A DNA stretch of 23,599 nt. Origin: Flexistipes sp. GTDB taxonomy: Bacteria > Chrysiogenota > Deferribacteres > Deferribacterales > Flexistipitaceae. Of this stretch, positions 11,309 through 21,195 are shown in pieces. The translations under genes and the position numbers were made by a program. Numbering within the stretch: position 1 is the stretch's first letter; each line of letters begins with the position of its first letter. Where the stretch lies: the NCBI RefSeq assembly GCF_036172515.1, contig NZ_JAXKVW010000024.1, positions 1 through 23,599 of the forward strand, read 5' to 3'. The notes under the pieces are model-generated. The model saw only the letters and a program-made list of their open reading frames with translations, did not search any database and had not been told where the DNA came from.

Positions 11309-11377
11309 TATTAAATTATATGAATATTAAGTTTTTATATTGAAAAAATGCAGCTATAAGTTATTATTGATGTAAAT

Positions 11378-11538
11378 TCAGTTTCGCACTTCGCTGTGTC
11401 ATTGCGAAACTGAGCACTTAAGAATTTAAGTGCTCGCTTGTGGCAATCTCAAAATAATAATAAACGAGAGATTGCTTCGTCTACGCCCACGGGCGTACCC
11501 TCGCAAAGACTTGCAATAGGTACATGTGCGAAACTTGA
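11378..11538 (-). mobile_element. MITE-like element, copy A (inverted relative to copies B and C)
   Basis: Terminal inverted repeats TCA-GTTTCGCAC (left) and GTGCGAAACTTGA (right). The reverse complement shares blocks GTCTTTGCGAGG, GACGAAGCAATCTCTC and TTGAGATTGCCACAAGC with copy B. Internal perfect hairpins: GAGCACTTAA-gaat-TTAAGTGCTC, GCAATCTC/GAGATTGC and TACGCC-cacg-GGCGTA. Fills the whole der-tlpA intergenic gap. No flanking direct repeat was detected. Confidence 0.6.
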
Positions 11539-11576
11539 AGAAGTGAATTGATATCTGATGATTTTGGAGGAAATTT

Positions 11577-12101: not shown

Positions 12102-12427
12102 ATAATAAAAAAAGACTAGCCTTGCAACTATCTGGTATTTTTATTTGCTTAATTTATTATGAGCAAATTTTGCGACAATATATGTTGTTAACTTATACCT
12201 AAATTTTTTGATTTTGTGTCAGGCAGTTAACGTTATTATGTTTTGGCAGGCAAAAGCACTTCTCTGTAATTAGCATATTCAAATAATTGCATAAGTCATT
12301 GTAGCTTAAAATTTAATCTTTGATTTTTATTTATATGTTGTATAATTTGATTCCAGGGATTCTTGAGTCAACAGGTATGTTTTTGCTTATAAATTAAAGC
12401 TGAATTAGTAAAATTGGGAGGTTAGAA

Positions 12428-13738: not shown

Positions 13739-13748
13739 TAAGTGTAAT

Positions 13749-13929
13749 TCAAGTTTCGCACTTACACTGTTTTCGCGTCTTTGCGAGGAGTGAAAACGAC
13801 GAAGCAATCTCTCTACTTTTCTTGTTTTGAGATTGCCACAAGCCTGTTTCCACATGATTTCGCAAGGATGCCTATGGCATATATATTCGGTAGAAGCGAA
13901 TGCTAGACAAAACGAAGTGCGAAACTTGA
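13749..13929 (+). mobile_element. MITE-like element, copy B (reference orientation)
   Basis: TIRs TCAAGTTTCGCACTT (13749-) and AAGTGCGAAACTTGA (-13929), matching 15/15 as reverse complements. 8-bp flanks AGTGTAAT / TGTGTAAG match 6/8. Occupies the whole cytochrome-TPR intergenic gap. Confidence 0.6.
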
Positions 13930-13978
13930 TGTGTAAGTGGATAAATGCGTTAATTTAATATTAAAAAAGGAGCTGAAT

Positions 13979-14929
13979 ATGAATTACAGAATAGTTTTAG
14001 GATGCATTCTTTCTTTGTTGATTGTTTCAACTGTTATAGGTGCATTTCCTTTACAACAGCTCGAAAAGGGTGACACTGTTTCCATTCAAAAGTTTAAAGG
14101 ATTGAATAAGGAATTATCAGGTATAGATAAAAATTCAGAAACAAAGCTTTTGCTTCTTTGGAGGCACGATAAGCGTACGAATGTTGATACGATAAAAAGC
14201 TTTGCTGAAATGTGCAGCAAAAGGGATGTTCCCTGCATTGCGGTTGATCTGCAGGAAGGGACTATGGAACAAATTAAAAGTATTGTCGGAGCAGATGCAG
14301 CTGAAGATATATATTTTGCCCACGATAAGACTGGTGTAACTGATGACTGGGGTATTTTTACACTGCCGGTAACACTTTTCCTGGATAAAAATAACAAAGT
14401 AATAAATGCTGTCGGTTATGAAGGTCAGTATGCTGTTCAAGTGGGAAGATATGTAGATTTTCTCACCGGCAAAATTTCTGAAGAGGAATATAAAAAATTT
14501 GAAAACACGAGTGTGGTACATGACAGAAGAAGCAGACTGCCAAAAATCAATTTTATAAAAAGGCTTATAGAAGACGGTCAGCCCGAGGATGCTAAAGAGC
14601 GTCTGGCAAAGCTGGATAAAAAAGACCTTACTATGGAGGAAAAGCTAAATCTTGCTGAAGTTTATCTGAAGCTTGACATGCCGGATAAGGTTGAAGAAGC
14701 GCTGCAAGGTGTTTCCGAATATAATGTTGGAGCCAAGTTTTACCGGGCGTACGCAGCTTATCTCAAGGGGAATTTAGATAAGGCATTAAAGACGCTTCAT
14801 TCGATAGAGAAGATATATCCTCAGAAAAAGAAACTTTTTTATTTGTTAGGCGAAATATATAAACAAAAAGGTGATTATAAAAATGCTGCAGAATATTTTG
14901 AAAAATCTTGCAATAATTCTGCTATTTAG
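13979..14929 (+). CDS. secreted/anchored protein: CxxC-less thioredoxin-like domain fused to C-terminal TPR repeats
   Basis: The track ORF starts at GTG 13937, but ATG 13979 (MNYRIVLGCILSLLIV…) follows an AAGGAG SD at 7 nt. N-terminal hydrophobic segment. Central domain has TlpA-like secondary pattern, but LWRHDKRT sits where WCPPC would be. The C-terminal third has TPR-like AxxYxxxG periodicity. Confidence 0.6.
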   Translation: MNYRIVLGCILSLLIVSTVIGAFPLQQLEKGDTVSIQKFKGLNKELSGIDKNSETKLLLLWRHDKRTNVDTIKSFAEMCSKRDVPCIAVDLQEGTMEQIKSIVGADAAEDIYFAHDKTGVTDDWGIFTLPVTLFLDKNNKVINAVGYEGQYAVQVGRYVDFLTGKISEEEYKKFENTSVVHDRRSRLPKINFIKRLIEDGQPEDAKERLAKLDKKDLTMEEKLNLAEVYLKLDMPDKVEEALQGVSEYNVGAKFYRAYAAYLKGNLDKALKTLHSIEKIYPQKKKLFYLLGEIYKQKGDYKNAAEYFEKSCNNSAI

Positions 14930-15060
14930 TATATCTACTGCTGCCTTTGCGGCCGGAAGCGAACTGCATATTTATTTTCCCCGTAAAGGCAGTGTTGTTA
15001 ACAGCGACAGTATCTTTTAGTTATAGCTAAAAAAGTATCTAATTTAGAACTTCCAAGAAC

Positions 15061-15097
15061 AAGGCCTTTGAATCAGTGCCCCATATTCAAAGGCCTT
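15061..15097. repeat. perfect 13-bp inverted repeat (hairpin/cruciform) AAGGCCTTTGAAT-n11-ATTCAAAGGCCTT
   Basis: Seen directly. The stem is exactly complementary with an 11-nt loop CAGTGCCCCAT. Neither strand has a U-tract after it, so it is not an obvious intrinsic terminator. Lies 130 nt after the TPR gene stop. Confidence 0.5.
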
Positions 15098-15589
15098 AAA
15101 ACTATTGGAGTCTAGGTACTTATGAAAATCAGGCTATGCCATTTCGTATTAGTGTCTTACACATTTCAGTGAAATCTCATCATGGTGGGAAAATCTATTC
15201 TCATCCAGCAGTGTGAATTTTACAAAGCGGGTTCTGTCCACAAAGAGCATTTTTGTGGTGCCGCTGTCAAGGCTGGTCAGCCAGAAGAAATAAAGCTTCA
15301 GATTATCTGTATAATTGTAGGTGCTGCAGCCTACAATTTTATAATTTTCACTGCATATCATAATAAACACCATAAATAAGTACTTATTTATTATATAAAA
15401 AAATAAAAATTTTGTAAGCGAAAATTTGATATTGGCTTAACTGAGAGTTTTGAAAAATTCTGGAAGCAGGGCTTCAGCCTGCAATGTTTATCTTGAAACC
15501 CAGTGTTGTAAAGAGGCGGGACTATCCGAGCACTTAAGTTTTAAGTGCTCGGCCGAAAACTTCGAAAAACACATTATTCAAACCTATTA

Positions 15590-15714
15590 ACCTTGAACTT
15601 TGAACATTGAACTAACCTCACTCTCACATTCACACTCACTTTGCACTTGGTCCTTGGAACTTACCACTTACCACGTAGTACTTAGTACTTATCACTTAGC
15701 ACTAACTACCTCTC
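15590..15714. repeat. array of ~18 degenerate 6-7-nt tandem units (ACNTTGA / ACTCTC / ACTTNNN)
   Basis: Seen directly. Units read ACCTTGA ACTTTGA ACATTGA … ACTCTC ACATTC ACACTC ACTTTGC ACTTGGT CCTTGGA ACTTACC ACTTACC ACGTAGT ACTTAGT ACTTATC ACTTAGC ACTAACT ACCTCTC. The period is not a multiple of 3 and there is no ORF, so it is non-coding. Lies in the 3' flank of trmI. Confidence 0.6.
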
Positions 15715-15781
15715 TATTTGACATAGCTCTTAAAAAAATGGGAGGACACCAAAAACATTGAAGATAATATTCATTTAAAAG

Positions 15782-16741: not shown

Positions 16742-18643
16742 ATGAATAAACTGCAATCGTACGATAATATATTTCAGCTATTTATCAATACCTGGAGACA
16801 ATATCCCGATAAAACCGCTTTTGTCTATAGGGTCAATGGGGTTGAATTCGACGTAACCTATAATAAGCTTTTTGAAGATGTGCTTCTGCTCGCAAACGCT
16901 TTCATGGAAAAAAAGGTTACAAAAAACTCAAAAGTGGCTATTATTTCGGATAACCGGTACAGCTGGATTGTTACCGATCTGGCTCTGGTTGCAATAGGTG
17001 CTGTGAGTGTCCCCAGGGGCAGTGATACACCCGTGGACGAATTTGAGTTCATTATCAATCATTCAGAAAGTGATTTTATTGTTTTTGAGACCCCGGGCTT
17101 AATGAAATACACCCTGAGTGATTCCATTGCAAAAAAGATGAAAAACATTTTTGTGATGGAGGGCAATAGTGAACACCGTTTTTTTAATAAAATATATGCC
17201 TACAATGAAATCATTAAGAAAGACAGAGAAATAACTTATAATGAGATTGAAGAGTTTATTTCTCTTGCGGATAAACATAAGATAGATGACCCGTTTACCC
17301 TGATATACACATCAGGAACCACCGGCACTCCGAAAGGTGTGTTACTTTCAAACCGGAATTTTCTTGCAAATCTCAGCAGAATTCCGGATATGGTGGATTT
17401 GTCTCCTGATGATGTTTGGCTCTCAATTCTTCCGTCCTGGCATATATTCGAACGGTTGGCAGAACATTTGTCCGTTATGCAGGGGTGCACTACCGTATAT
17501 TCCAATATAAAGACTTTTTCCGATGATTTAAAAAAATACTCCCCTACAATTGTTGCCACAGTTCCCAGGTTGTGGGAGGCTTTGTACACAAAGGTTAATG
17601 CAACGCTAAAGAAAGAAAGTGAGAAAAAAGCCAAAATTTTTAATTTGCTGGTAAACGCTTCGGCAGCTTACAGAAGAAATAAAAGATTACTTAAAAACAA
17701 TCTTCCCGTGTTTGAGAAGAAGGGTTTTTTTGAAAATATATTTTCCAAGGGGCTGGCTTTTGTTAAAGTGGTTCTTTTGAAGCCGGTGGAAATGTACGTC
17801 GGGAAAAAGTTTGTCATTTTAAGGGAAAAGTTCGGCGGCAGACTCAGGCTTGCAGTGAGCGGGGGCGGAAGCTTGCCTCAGTTTGTTGATGAGTGGATAG
17901 ATGCTATAGGCATAAGGATTGTGAATGCTTACGGAATGACCGAATGCGCACCCGGAATCGCCGGAAGAGACCTACATTGTGAAGTTTTTGGCACTTTGGG
18001 ACCTCCCATAAAAGATACTGAAATCAGAATAGTTGATGAGGATGGTAATATACTGCCGGCGGGAAAAGAAGGTGAAATACAGGTTAAAGGCGAACAGGTT
18101 TTCAGCGGTTATTACAAAAATGAAGAGGAAAACCAAAAATCATTTACTAAGGATGGTTTTTTCAAAACAGGTGATTTGGGCAAATTTACTTTGACAGGTG
18201 AGCTGGTAATTACGGGACGTGCAAAGGAGATAATAGTTCTTGCTAATGGAGAAAATATCGATCCTACCAAAATAGAATCCACGATTTCCATGTTCCCCTT
18301 TGTCAAGGATGCTGTTCTTGTTGGCCAGGACAAAAAAGGATTGGGAGCCTTGATTGTCCCGGATTTTGAACAGATGAAAGATTACATATCTAAAAAATAC
18401 GATAAACTTGTTCACTCTAAGGAAGATGTTACAAAAGACAGTCATATTGCAGAGAAAATAAGGAAGGATATAAATAAATTTCTGTCTTCAAAAAAAGGTT
18501 TCAGGGATTATGAAAAATTACACAAAATCTCTTTTCTGGACAAGGAGTTTAAGTTGGGTGAAGAGCTCACCAATACCCTGAAAAAGAAAAGACACTACAT
18601 TGAAAAAAAGTACAGAGACATAATAAACAGACTTTTTAAATAA
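16742..18643 (+). CDS. long-chain-fatty-acid--CoA ligase (AMP-forming acyl-CoA synthetase, ACSL-like)
   Basis: 633 aa; AMP-binding signature YTSGTTGTPKGV, GYGMTE-like AYGMTEC, TGD..G hinge (FKTGDLG). Confidence 0.85.
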   Translation: MNKLQSYDNIFQLFINTWRQYPDKTAFVYRVNGVEFDVTYNKLFEDVLLLANAFMEKKVTKNSKVAIISDNRYSWIVTDLALVAIGAVSVPRGSDTPVDEFEFIINHSESDFIVFETPGLMKYTLSDSIAKKMKNIFVMEGNSEHRFFNKIYAYNEIIKKDREITYNEIEEFISLADKHKIDDPFTLIYTSGTTGTPKGVLLSNRNFLANLSRIPDMVDLSPDDVWLSILPSWHIFERLAEHLSVMQGCTTVYSNIKTFSDDLKKYSPTIVATVPRLWEALYTKVNATLKKESEKKAKIFNLLVNASAAYRRNKRLLKNNLPVFEKKGFFENIFSKGLAFVKVVLLKPVEMYVGKKFVILREKFGGRLRLAVSGGGSLPQFVDEWIDAIGIRIVNAYGMTECAPGIAGRDLHCEVFGTLGPPIKDTEIRIVDEDGNILPAGKEGEIQVKGEQVFSGYYKNEEENQKSFTKDGFFKTGDLGKFTLTGELVITGRAKEIIVLANGENIDPTKIESTISMFPFVKDAVLVGQDKKGLGALIVPDFEQMKDYISKKYDKLVHSKEDVTKDSHIAEKIRKDINKFLSSKKGFRDYEKLHKISFLDKEFKLGEELTNTLKKKRHYIEKKYRDIINRLFK

Positions 18644-18647
18644 ATTT

Positions 18648-18779
18648 TCAAATTTCGCACTTAGTTCTGTTATTGTGAGCGTAGCGAAGCAATCTCTAAT
18701 ACAAGACATGAGATCGCCGCGGGTTTTTGCCCTCGCGATGACGCTGTCAGACGTTCATAGGTGCAAGTGCGAAACTTGA
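18648..18779 (+). mobile_element. MITE-like element, copy C, flanked by a perfect 8-bp direct repeat ATAAATTT
   Basis: TIRs TCAAATTTCGCACTT / AAGTGCGAAACTTGA. Shares internal GCGAAGCAATCTCT with copy B. ATAAATTT at 18640-18647 (includes the acyl-CoA ligase stop TAA) is repeated exactly at 18780-18787, consistent with a target-site duplication. Confidence 0.65.
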
Positions 18780-18805
18780 ATAAATTTTTTTCCGGAGGCA
18801 GATCT

Positions 18806-19834
18806 ATGAAAGCTATGGTTCTGGAAAGAATTACAGATTTAAAACAAGAATCTAAACCTTTGGTATTAAGAGACCGTCCAGTCCCCGAAATCCAAAACAG
18901 TGAGGTATTAATAAAGGTAAAAGCCTGTGGAGTTTGTCATACAGAGCTTGACGAGATTGAAGGGCGTACCCCTCCTCCCCGGCTGCCTGTTGTCCCGGGG
19001 CATGAAATTGTGGGTGAGGTTGTGGGAATATCAGACGGTGCCACAAAATTCAAAGAAGGTGACAGAGTAGGAGTTGGCTGGATTTATTCCGCTTGTGGTG
19101 ATTGCTATTTCTGTGATAACGGACTGGAAAACTTATGCAGCGATTTTAAGGCCACCGGCAGGGATGCAGATGGTGGATATGGCGAATATATGAAAGTCAG
19201 TGAGCATTTTGCTGTAAAAATACCTGATGTGTATGAAGATTCCCAGGCTGCACCTTTGCTTTGTGCTGGAGCTGTGGGTTACCGCTCATTAAAGCTTGCC
19301 CGAATGGAAAATGGGCAAAATCTTGGTTTTATGGGATTTGGGGCATCCGCACATCTGGTTCTTCAGCTTGCCAAATATTTGTATCCTGAATCCCGTTTTT
19401 TTGTTTTTGCAAGAAGTGAATCCCAGCGGGAATTTGCCAAAAAGCTTGGTGCTTTTTGGACAGGAGATATAGAGGATTCCCCGCCGGAGAAGTGTCTGAG
19501 CATCATTGACACTACTCCGGTGTACAAAACTGTATTGGCGGGTCTTTTTAATATTTCTCCTTCGGGACGTTTAGTGGTTAATGCCATTAGTAAAGAAGAG
19601 TTTGACAAAGATATCTTGATGAATCTTGATTACAAAAATCACCTTTGGATGGAAAAAGAGTTGAAAAGTGTGGCAAATGTTACACCTGCTGATCTTCAGG
19701 ATTTTATCAAAATTGCTGCAAAAGCAGGGATTTTTCCCACTGTGGAAGAATATCCCCTGGAAGAAGCCAACAAAGCACTGATTGGGATAAAGAATGGAAG
19801 CAGTGTCGGAGCCAAAGTGCTCAGATTGGCATAA
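18806..19834 (+). CDS. zinc-dependent alcohol dehydrogenase (MDR superfamily)
   Basis: ATG 18806 with GGAGG SD; the track ORF from 18761 lies inside MITE copy C. Catalytic Zn motif GHEIVGEV, structural-Zn Cys cluster CGDCYFCDNGLENLC, Rossmann GFGASAH. Confidence 0.85.
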   Translation: MKAMVLERITDLKQESKPLVLRDRPVPEIQNSEVLIKVKACGVCHTELDEIEGRTPPPRLPVVPGHEIVGEVVGISDGATKFKEGDRVGVGWIYSACGDCYFCDNGLENLCSDFKATGRDADGGYGEYMKVSEHFAVKIPDVYEDSQAAPLLCAGAVGYRSLKLARMENGQNLGFMGFGASAHLVLQLAKYLYPESRFFVFARSESQREFAKKLGAFWTGDIEDSPPEKCLSIIDTTPVYKTVLAGLFNISPSGRLVVNAISKEEFDKDILMNLDYKNHLWMEKELKSVANVTPADLQDFIKIAAKAGIFPTVEEYPLEEANKALIGIKNGSSVGAKVLRLA

Positions 19835-19859: not shown

Positions 19860-20651
19860 TTATTTGATTACAATGAGTGCGGCAGGATCAAGTATTCTGA
19901 AGGTGAAAGATTCTGTAAAATAAAGGGTAACCTCTTTACTGTCGTGCTGCAGATATCCTATGGATAAATCCTGTCCCAGTGTAAGTCTGAAATCGCCGCC
20001 TCTTTCAGATACCAAATAGGCTTCTGAAATATTGCTGCTTACCTTTACAGATCCTCCGATAATATCTTCAATCTGTTTCTTCAATGGGTATCCTTTATTT
20101 AATCCGACAATATTTTTCATCTGATCAACGGAAACAACGAGTGAATAGGGGCCGTCAACGGAAGCACTTTTCAGTTTGGCAACAGCTTCCGCTGTTACAT
20201 AAGGGAGGTCTTCGGTCTTGGTTGGCAGTTTTAAAGAACTATGTTCACTTGAGTCTTTCAGCCCTTTAATATTTGCTTTTTCAAGACCGTAATATACAGA
20301 TTTGTCTTCGAAGACAGCTATCTTTTTTGCCGCATCTTCAAGGGAAGAAAGGTCAATATCTTCAGCCCCTCTTAATACGCTGTCCAACTCCCACAATTTG
20401 AGTTTAAACGGGACTCTGGCTTCGACTAGCGGCTGTACTTTGGGGATACCATATTCAACAGCTGAGCCTTTATCCGTTACAATTTCCAGCCTTCCTGTCT
20501 TTACAGATTCTGTATCAATTCCCAACGGTCCTTCAACATCCACAAATTTTCTGACACTTAGGTGTGAGGAAAGGGTTCTGTTTGCCTGAAGATTTATTTC
20601 TTCCCACGCTTTATCCGGGATGGGTGCCAGATTTTGTCTTAATATATTCAT
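19860..20651 (-). CDS. encapsulin nanocompartment shell protein (family 1, HK97 fold)
   Basis: 263 aa. The N-terminus MNILRQNLAPIPDKAWEEI…RKFVDVEGPLG…LWELD…DLSSLEDAAKKIAVFED closely tracks the Thermotoga-type family-1 encapsulin sequence as I remember it. Confidence 0.85.
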   Translation of the reverse strand: MNILRQNLAPIPDKAWEEINLQANRTLSSHLSVRKFVDVEGPLGIDTESVKTGRLEIVTDKGSAVEYGIPKVQPLVEARVPFKLKLWELDSVLRGAEDIDLSSLEDAAKKIAVFEDKSVYYGLEKANIKGLKDSSEHSSLKLPTKTEDLPYVTAEAVAKLKSASVDGPYSLVVSVDQMKNIVGLNKGYPLKKQIEDIIGGSVKVSSNISEAYLVSERGGDFRLTLGQDLSIGYLQHDSKEVTLYFTESFTFRILDPAALIVIK

Positions 20652-20663
20652 TATTTACCCCCT

Positions 20664-21011
20664 TTATTTATTAAGTTTGCCTATATTCAGACTTTTGTTA
20701 TCACTGTCCTGGGATTCTGCCTCGCCTTCTTCCAAATGGGCAATATTTCCTTCGGTAAACAGATATGTTCTCAGTTCATTGTCCCATGCAGGCATATTAC
20801 GTCTCAGCCATTCCAGTGCCATACACGCATGCTCGATTTCTTCATCCCTGTTATGTGCCAATATCTCCTTTAAGTTTTCATCATCTGTTGCATCGACTCT
20901 CTGCTGGTACCAGTCGATTGCTTCAATCTCCTCTTTGAGACTGTTTAATGCGCGGGTAAAATTCTTGGTCTCTTCACTTAATTTTTCTTCGGGCTCATGG
21001 TATTGTGACAT
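20664..21011 (-). CDS. encapsulated ferritin-like cargo protein (EncFtn/Flp) with C-terminal targeting peptide
   Basis: 115 aa. Motif LKEILAHNRDEEIEHACMALEWLRRNMPAWDNELRTYLFT is typical of EncFtn. C-terminal SLNIGKLNK fits the SLxIGxLK cargo-loading peptide. AGGAGG SD at 6 nt; stop lies 13 nt before the encapsulin start. Confidence 0.8.
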   Translation of the reverse strand: MSQYHEPEEKLSEETKNFTRALNSLKEEIEAIDWYQQRVDATDDENLKEILAHNRDEEIEHACMALEWLRRNMPAWDNELRTYLFTEGNIAHLEEGEAESQDSDNKSLNIGKLNK

Positions 21012-21195
21012 TTAGCGCCTCCTGTGGTTTTTAATTATACTATAATGATATACCAAGGAGTTCAGAATTCAATACATCAATAATTTTTGTGATTTGTTTA
21101 GTAGTATATTAGTGTATTGATGAGCTAAAAGAGCAGCGAAACAAGAATTAAGCCTGCTCTGAGATATTTAGATAAGTACCACAACGCTTATTTTT

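Follow-up and report, generated by a model that had tools for sequence, protein, structure and literature searches.

Intergenic repeats of Flexistipes interpreted as a non-autonomous MITE family with ISPepr1-type IS4 ends around a REP-like hairpin doublet

Correia elements of Neisseria, RUP elements of Streptococcus pneumoniae and ERIC sequences of enterobacteria are small intergenic repeats with terminal inverted repeats (TIRs), strong hairpin potential and co-transcribed positions. Correia and RUP duplicate the dinucleotide TA, and Correia elements carry promoter, IHF and RNase III features. REP sequences and the inverted REPIN doublets are reportedly mobilised by RAYT transposases, as is said to have been described by Nunvar in 2010 and by Bertels and Rainey in 2011. 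De Palmenaer et al. (2008; PMC2266710, Table 1) describe the ISPepr1 subgroup of the IS4 family as insertion sequences (ISs) of 1500-1600 bp that have ends of the form YT-AA-YTT---A, prefer A+T-rich targets and are flanked by direct repeats of 7-8 bp. BrickBuilt of Porphyromonas gingivalis places IS5-type TIRs around a minisatellite interior and is flanked by irregular duplications (PMC4596501).

We analysed a stretch of Flexistipes DNA of 23,599 nucleotides, called the window below, in which three intergenic elements combine traits of all these systems. With the ISPepr1 subgroup they share the end consensus, the 7-8 bp duplications and the A+T-rich targets, and an IS of 1570 bp with the same ends encodes a transposase with the YREK motif; in contrast to those ISs, the window elements measure 132-181 bp and are non-coding, and the likeness is to the published description of the subgroup, not to the sequence of ISPepr1 (PMC2266710). 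BrickBuilt resembles them in having IS-type TIRs around an unrelated repetitive interior, many intergenic copies and no transposase remnant (PMC4596501), whereas the Flexistipes elements have IS4-type ends, a hairpin doublet and regular duplications; BrickBuilt is a precedent for IS-type ends around a foreign interior. The first-pass annotation had compared the elements to Correia, ERIC and RUP. This is a fair analogy in size, TIRs, folding potential and location, but the TIR sequences differ, the duplication is 7-8 bp and not TA, and Rfam yields no match, so that the elements are not members of those families. The consensus of those families is presumably unrelated to TCAAGTTTCGCACTT. The interior units resemble REPs in being short imperfect hairpins with conserved flanking bases, occurring as singles, arrays and inverted doublets and lacking duplications when alone; they differ in having no GTAG motif of the classical kind, in a sequence that is conserved across phyla, which is unusual for REPs, and in being, within the window, the cargo of an element with TIRs.

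We consider it very probable that the three segments belong to a non-autonomous MITE of Flexistipes, in which ISPepr1-type IS4 ends surround a captured REP-like doublet. This is an ordinary kind of mobile DNA, and the family itself seems to be undescribed. Searches of the searchable literature with DNA strings and conceptual translations returned unrelated primer matches only, and no link between Flexistipes and MITEs was found there.

Position, termini and anatomy of the three elements

The window encodes gltX, der, a thioredoxin-like protein, a multihaem cytochrome c (nearest named relatives in Deferribacter species), a TPR protein, trmI, an AMP-dependent ligase, a zinc-dependent alcohol dehydrogenase (ADH; 18806-19834), an encapsulin and aroC. 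The last 73 nt of the contig (23527-23599) match the beginning of a bacterial 16S rRNA gene (Rfam RF00177, 54.5 bits), where assemblies typically break. All three intergenic segments noticed in the first reading were recovered with matching ends, copies B and C with identical limits and copy A with limits of 11377-11539.

11377..11539, minus strand: copy A of the putative MITE; left TIR degenerate, TTCAGTTTCGCACTT, with one base deleted; right TIR ATGTGCGAAACTTGAA; empty orthologous site in locus L176
13749..13929, plus strand: copy B of the putative MITE, the reference copy; perfect 15-nt TIRs; empty orthologous site in locus L195
18648..18779, plus strand: copy C of the putative MITE, divergent subfamily; stem of the 3' half-unit ATCGC/GCGAT; filled orthologue in L199, empty in L200-L203
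13777..13811, plus strand: 5' REP-like half-unit in copy B, GTC-TTTGC-GAGG...CGAA-GCAAT-CTC
13829..13869, plus strand: 3' REP-like half-unit in copy B, inverted, GAG-ATTGC-CACAAG...TTTC-GCAAG-GAT
about 11398-11510: REP-like half-units of copy A
about 18670-18745: REP-like half-units of copy C

All three share the paired ends TCAAGTTTCGCACTT / AAGTGCGAAACTTGA as well as a common set of internal boxes. When up to 3 mismatches were allowed, AAGTGCGAAACTTGA matched the window eight times against 1.06 expected, a number reached in none of 100 shuffles, and six of the eight matches are the two ends of each of the three elements. The internal blocks listed in the first-pass annotation were borne out as GTCTTTGCGAGG, (GA)CGAAGCAATCTC and GAGATTGCC, of which copy C has variant forms; exact CGAAGCAATCTC occurs three times in the window, once per element and nowhere outside them.

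The TIRs are 15-16 nt long and have 0-2 mismatches in most copies of the family. Their exact terminus is ambiguous by one base, since an outer T...A pair is often present that can be counted to the element or to the target; one extra base on each side probably belongs to the element termini (TTCAAG...CTTGAA). Inside the outer TIR, the 5' part runs through a short spacer, GTC(T/A)TTGCGAGG, a variable segment that often forms a small hairpin, and CGAAGCAATCTC; after a 13-20 nt A/T-rich loop, the 3' part continues with GAGATTGCC, a second variable hairpin, TTTCGCAATGAC and the outer TIR. Each element is predicted to fold into one long hairpin, with energies of -64, -60.8 and -45.4 kcal/mol (z = -5.5, -6.4 and -3.3 relative to shuffled sequences). 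None of them contains an open reading frame, apart from spurious overlaps.

The flanking genes all lie on the plus strand, and copy A has the opposite orientation to B and C. Copy A begins 69 nt past the der stop and ends 38 nt short of the next start, copy B lies 10 nt past the cytochrome stop and 49 nt short of the ATG at 13979, and copy C lies 4 nt past the ligase stop and 26 nt short of the ATG at 18806.

Empty sites, target duplications and further copies

For each of copies A, B and C, a related Flexistipes genome has an empty orthologous site at which the target is single. Locus L176, from metagenome Ga0247721, aligns to the surroundings of copy A with 91% nucleotide identity in the der flank and 86% in the thioredoxin flank, and its spacer is without the element. 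At L195, whose cytochrome is 92% identical at the protein level, the cytochrome-TPR spacer measures 51 nt compared with 240 nt in the window; in more distant relatives it is 69 and 10 nt. Four contigs (L200-L203; ADH 85-88% identical) have a ligase-ADH spacer of 22 nt compared with 162 nt in the window, and ATAAATTTT, which is single in their spacer, stands on both sides of copy C. The more closely related L199 (ADH 97% identical) carries copy C at the same place. The three segments are therefore insertions, based on the empty orthologous sites together with the following duplicated targets.

left 11369..11376, GATGTAAA; right 11540-11547, GAAGTGAA; no strand: target duplication of copy A, degenerate with 2 differences between the left and right copies; the single target in L176 is GTTGTAAA; determined by eye
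left 13742..13747; right 13931-13936; no strand: target duplication of copy B, GTGTAA or GTGTAAT; single in L195, double in the window
left 18640..18647, ATAAATTT; right 18780-18787; no strand: target duplication of copy C, single in L200-L203; includes the ligase stop TAA at 18641-18643

In addition, L176 carries at 1099-1195 a truncated 97-bp copy, located 3' of the thioredoxin-like gene and flanked by a perfect AGATTGATT / GATTGAT duplication, which is missing from the window counterpart at 12102-12427.

To collect further copies, a metagenome scan was run with a pattern of the left TIR followed by box 1 and box 2. The scan revealed 35 loci, of which 18 belong to a single metagenome and lie on contigs with a combined length of about 0.9 Mb; two more copies (L002 and L115) came from a single MAG among the matches listed for the genome collection. 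After deduplication, the metagenome loci, the window and these two loci amount to about 29 distinct copies, and all 29 are intergenic. In 14 of the 29 copies, the ends are abutted by perfect direct repeats 6 bp or more in length, compared with 1.7% in a control in which left and right flanks of different copies were paired. These repeats are 6-9 bp long with a mode of 7-8 bp, the value of 7 or 8 depending on whether the outer T...A pair is assigned to the element or to the target, and they consist to 89% of A+T; no clean duplication is present in about half of the copies. A 3-bp TNA duplication of the IS5/Harbinger-like kind, suggested by GT[A/T]A after the 15-mer, was dropped when both flanks were compared.

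Family-wide, the elements range from 97 to 349 bp and are mostly 141-142 bp long. A core group of 16 copies (138-144 bp) has a mean pairwise identity of 91%, and other subfamilies of 154, 231 and 237 bp have modules swapped or added. Copy B derives by deletion from the 231-bp subfamily, in which an extra right-hand module is present (13870-13909), and copy A bears the variable hairpin of the 154-bp form. The internal boxes are conserved while the variable segments of A, B and C differ greatly, unlike the uniform decay of one master copy. We read this pattern as a likely sign of subfamilies and module swapping, with selection on the boxes as an alternative. The composite pattern of left TIR and boxes had no match in viral contigs, and the MITE consensus had none in plasmids.

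A Logan contig of the window's genome, assembled from short reads, breaks off 26 nt inside copy B, as expected where a repeat interrupts an assembly. Thus, the first-pass suggestion of MITE-like elements with many copies genome-wide agrees with the TIRs, the duplications, the three empty sites, the dozens of copies in relatives and the repeat-linked assembly breaks, and the opposite outcome named there, only these copies and no conservation of the TIR elsewhere, is contradicted by the many further copies. For Flexistipes and other Deferribacterota genomes, the family accounts for unannotated palindromic operon spacers, breaks in short-read assemblies and differences in presence and absence between strains; such strain-level differences are possible markers.

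Terminal sequences and the REP-like interior

A scan of a genome collection of 596 billion bases with the bare 15-mer returned at least 120 loci, most of them single chance matches; approximately 1000 chance matches of a 15-mer are expected in a collection of this size (estimated from 4^15). Among the matches listed, the 15-mer is repeated in a dozen genomes of different phyla, where it always lies at the boundary between multi-copy sequence and unique flank. The chance expectation, together with the random appearance of most single-match loci, could be taken to mean that the likeness to IS ends is coincidental or convergent and that local duplication or recombination, not transposition, gave rise to the repeats. 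We give this reading next to no probability. The 15-mer coincides exactly with the limits of repeats in many genomes of different phyla, the copies are dispersed over many contigs, and the duplications and empty sites, which demonstrate insertion, already refute it.

In a Flavobacteriaceae chromosome, the 15-mer ends an IS of 1570-1572 bp, CTCAAGTTTCGCAC...GTGCGAAACTTGAG, with a single ORF of 477 aa that matches the NCBIfam model NF049925 'IS4 family transposase' with 389.7 bits (cutoff 250) as well as Pfam DDE_5 and DDE_Tnp_1. This Flavobacteriaceae protein has a complete Y-2-R-3-E-6-K motif, YSIRWSIEVFFKEAK, and the IS is flanked by the A+T duplications TAATATTA and TAAATAA (7-8 bp). A second same-ended IS, from Singulisphaera, is 1622 bp long (L098 1775-3397 and L108 613-2235) and combines the terminal TTCAAGTTTCGCA with an IS701-type transposase (NF049999) and 5-bp CTNAG duplications. 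The 7-8 bp duplications of the IS4-type element and the 5-bp duplications of the IS701-type element, at the same terminal TTCAAGTTTCGCA, imply that two transposase groups share one end sequence, which is a point against the assignment of the ends to ISPepr1 proposed below. Loci L041 and L014 were grouped with the Singulisphaera 1622-bp IS701-type elements.

Both TTCAAGTTTCGCA of the window and CTCAAGTTTCGCA of the full-length IS match the published YT-AA-YTT---A at every specified position, the terminal sequence being (Y)TCAAGTTTCGCA (Y = C/T); size, duplication length and target preference also agree with ISPepr1. Short elements with the same ends, 7-8 bp duplications and unrelated interiors were found in Cloacimonadota (L048 4772-4847, about 76 bp) and Bacteroidales (L105 3736-4005, 269 bp), so the ends behave as a mobile module and the interior is arbitrary. 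We conclude that the ends probably represent the transposase-recognition module of ISPepr1-type IS4 elements, judged by consensus string, size and duplication length and not by ISPepr1 itself; the TIR that had gone unrecognised in the first reading would thus be the terminal sequence of this type of IS. The string (Y)TCAAGTTTCGCA offers a practical tag for ISPepr1-type ISs and their MITEs in many phyla, since it was found at the limits of repeats in Bacteroidota, Planctomycetota, Cloacimonadota, Bacillota and Verrucomicrobiota.

Further repeats ending in the same 15-mer were observed in Cloacimonadota (L046, L060, L092 and L113) and at contig ends of Erysipelotrichaceae MI.10_11 (L008, L057, L070, L076, L091, L096, L101 and L116); their interiors are unrelated to the Flexistipes MITE. 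Repeats of this kind often lie at contig ends and hence break assemblies.

The proposed search for a full-length IS with matching ends was thus answered in Flavobacteriaceae and Singulisphaera but not in the Flexistipes data: the window and about 320 kb of loci related to Flexistipes yielded neither an autonomous IS nor a transposase homologue. A tblastn search with two transposases gave no match in the window or in any of the Flexistipes-related loci, and a scan of the Flexistipes data for solitary TIRs, as ends of full-length ISs, returned MITE ends only. Two TIR-like pairs at IS-like spacing (L178 2009-4111 and L188 2383-3921) were rejected, as they enclose secretin and outer-membrane efflux genes and not transposases.

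We infer that mobilisation would take place in trans by cut-and-paste chemistry. A DDE transposase of ISPepr1 type, encoded elsewhere, would bind both (T)TCAAGTTTCGCACTT ends and excise the element, which would then be inserted at an A+T-rich intergenic site, where staggered cuts of the target would leave the 7-8 bp duplication.

The interior contains no remnant of a transposase gene. One arm, GTC-ATTGC-GAG-[variable hairpin]-GAA-GCAAT-CTC, forms the elementary unit, and the MITE holds an inverted doublet of it. The same unit exists alone. A scan of viral contigs with CGAAGCAATCTC-N(8-30)-GAGATTGC revealed 38 loci of low to high GC, many of them multi-copy or in tandem arrays; GTCATTGCGAG...CTCGCAATGAC delimits all 38, and the IS4-type TIR is missing from every one of them. 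Units without TIRs, single and arrayed, also occur in Flexistipes-related contigs (L186 10370-10600 and 11340-11510; L160 3290-3560; L178 6080-6280), in a Dehalococcoidales MAG of the Chloroflexi (L058) and in unannotated parts of plasmid records of Halomonas, Methylocystis and Methylosinus (Gamma- and Alphaproteobacteria). Since the interior is not transposase-derived and the unit exists alone, the family is best regarded as a chimera in which IS4-type ends enclose a palindromic repeat that was captured.

Of 121 distinct regex matches, 53 have ATTGC/GCAAT as their 5-bp stem. Variants changed on both sides that still pair were ATTAC/GTAAT (5 matches), ATCGC/GCGAT (3, including copy C) and ACTGC/GCAGT (1), and stems with a wobble or a single mismatch were present as well. 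GTAG is not constant in these units. No duplications were seen by eye around units that stand alone. The motifs of hammerhead and other ribozyme cores and of attC do not fit the unit. No description of it was found in Rfam or by string search of the searchable literature, which is weak evidence that it is undescribed. As a tentative proposal, which we regard as possible and well short of probable, the interior is an apparently undescribed cross-phylum REP-like hairpin unit whose short stem is kept by compensatory changes and which may have a mobilising or binding protein of its own. If it has such a protein, the MITE would be one repeat system riding inside another and the unit the more interesting object. 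The captured unit is a lead to a widespread repeat absent from Rfam and from the searchable literature.

The doublet of units of about 35-45 nt is REPIN-like, and it could be asked whether the whole element is a REP/REPIN-type repeat, spread through its internal hairpins by a single-strand HUH/Y1 (RAYT-like) transposase, with the outer repeats being incidental. The TIR-less units in Flexistipes relatives (L186 and L160) and in unrelated genomes, as well as the three compensatory stem variants, speak for this reading. However, each of the three empty-site comparisons places the insertion boundaries at the outer TIRs rather than at the REP-like boxes, 6-9 bp duplications flank the insertions whereas the units that stand alone have none by eye, the TIR is identical to the ends of ISs with DDE transposases, and no RAYT gene came to notice. 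To our knowledge, flanking duplications of 6-9 bp are not expected of HUH-type insertion. The boundaries and duplications largely refute this explanation of the composite element, which we hold to be improbable.

Half-unit tandem arrays, e.g., repeats of about 46 bp consisting of GAGATTGCCGCGGTCGCACGCTCCCTCGCAATGAC and a spacer, were observed in the viral contigs L127, L148, L150, L157, L126 and L135, which differ widely in GC content. In L186, REP-like units flank a minus-strand cassette of two genes (93 and 107 aa) that look antitoxin/toxin-like by eye.

Transcription and predicted RNA structure

Returning to the MITE, its copies in the window, which occupy formerly short intercistronic spacers 3' of stop codons and 5' of ribosome-binding sites, would probably be co-transcribed as strong hairpins. 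The first-pass annotation had considered that such elements could act as RNA processing or stability sites or as polar terminators, and had named covariation as a sign of a structured ncRNA family. In that case the elements would be cis-acting RNAs under selection and their inverted repeats RNA helices. Several properties are compatible with this explanation, i.e., the strong predicted folds (z between -3.3 and -6.4), the location in probable operons between stop codons and ribosome-binding sites, and the T7 run that follows the hairpin of copy C. Part of that T7 run is the duplicated target.

However, RNAalifold analysis of the 16 core copies gave a covariation term of +0.58 kcal/mol and compensatory changes in 1 of 42 pairs, with one-sided changes that mostly break pairs; covariation of the kind found in ncRNAs is thus absent from these copies. 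Rfam returned nothing at the elements, either in the window at the gathering threshold and at E<=10 or in 11 related loci at the gathering threshold. Copies between co-directional genes are sense in 10 cases and antisense in 7, without orientation bias, and copies A and B/C differ in orientation within the window itself. Copy C is 92.4% identical between the window and L199, which is the level of third codon positions in its flanking genes (92.4% and 89.2%), whereas their first and second codon positions are about 99% identical. The ten differences between the two orthologues of copy C all fall outside the TIRs, which is not significant (p ~0.08 by our own estimate). Furthermore, close relatives lack the element at all three sites, and promoter and terminator scans gave nothing above chance in the elements. 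This indirect evidence, namely the absence of covariation and of orientation bias and one orthologous pair diverging at the synonymous rate, leans against a selected RNA role, and we consider that explanation very improbable. The copies would instead be tolerated, neutrally drifting passengers and not selected regulators.

At two of the three sites the elements occupy spacers that were formerly 22-51 nt long, the ribosome-binding sites 3' of the elements are intact, and copy C has been kept while synonymous sites diverged by about 8%. Based on these observations, the elements are probably transcribed as hairpins between genes that are very probably co-transcribed, and are tolerated there; a strong polar effect seems unlikely. 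Copies in intercistronic spacers of 22-51 nt offer a natural test of the tolerance of operons for hairpins.

A sigma-70-like match, TTCGCA-17-TATATT (9 of 12 positions), is present at 13859-13887 in the extra right-hand module of copy B, directed toward the TPR gene; it is no better than chance, and the module that holds it is kept in the 231-bp subfamily.

Elsewhere in the window, the 850 nt between the TPR gene and trmI (14930-15781) contain no ORF longer than 74 aa. This gap includes a terminator-like hairpin followed by a T-rich tail (15313-15338) and a segment (15445-15590) that is 74% identical to L177 9514-9659. In addition, a 25-nt direct repeat, GTAATTTGTTGAGTAGTATATTTGT, is present at 509-533 and 21089-21113 with 88% identity between the two copies. 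One of these lies 5' of the encapsulin/EncFtn-like operon on the minus strand (19860-21011), and the repeat may be a shared regulatory site.
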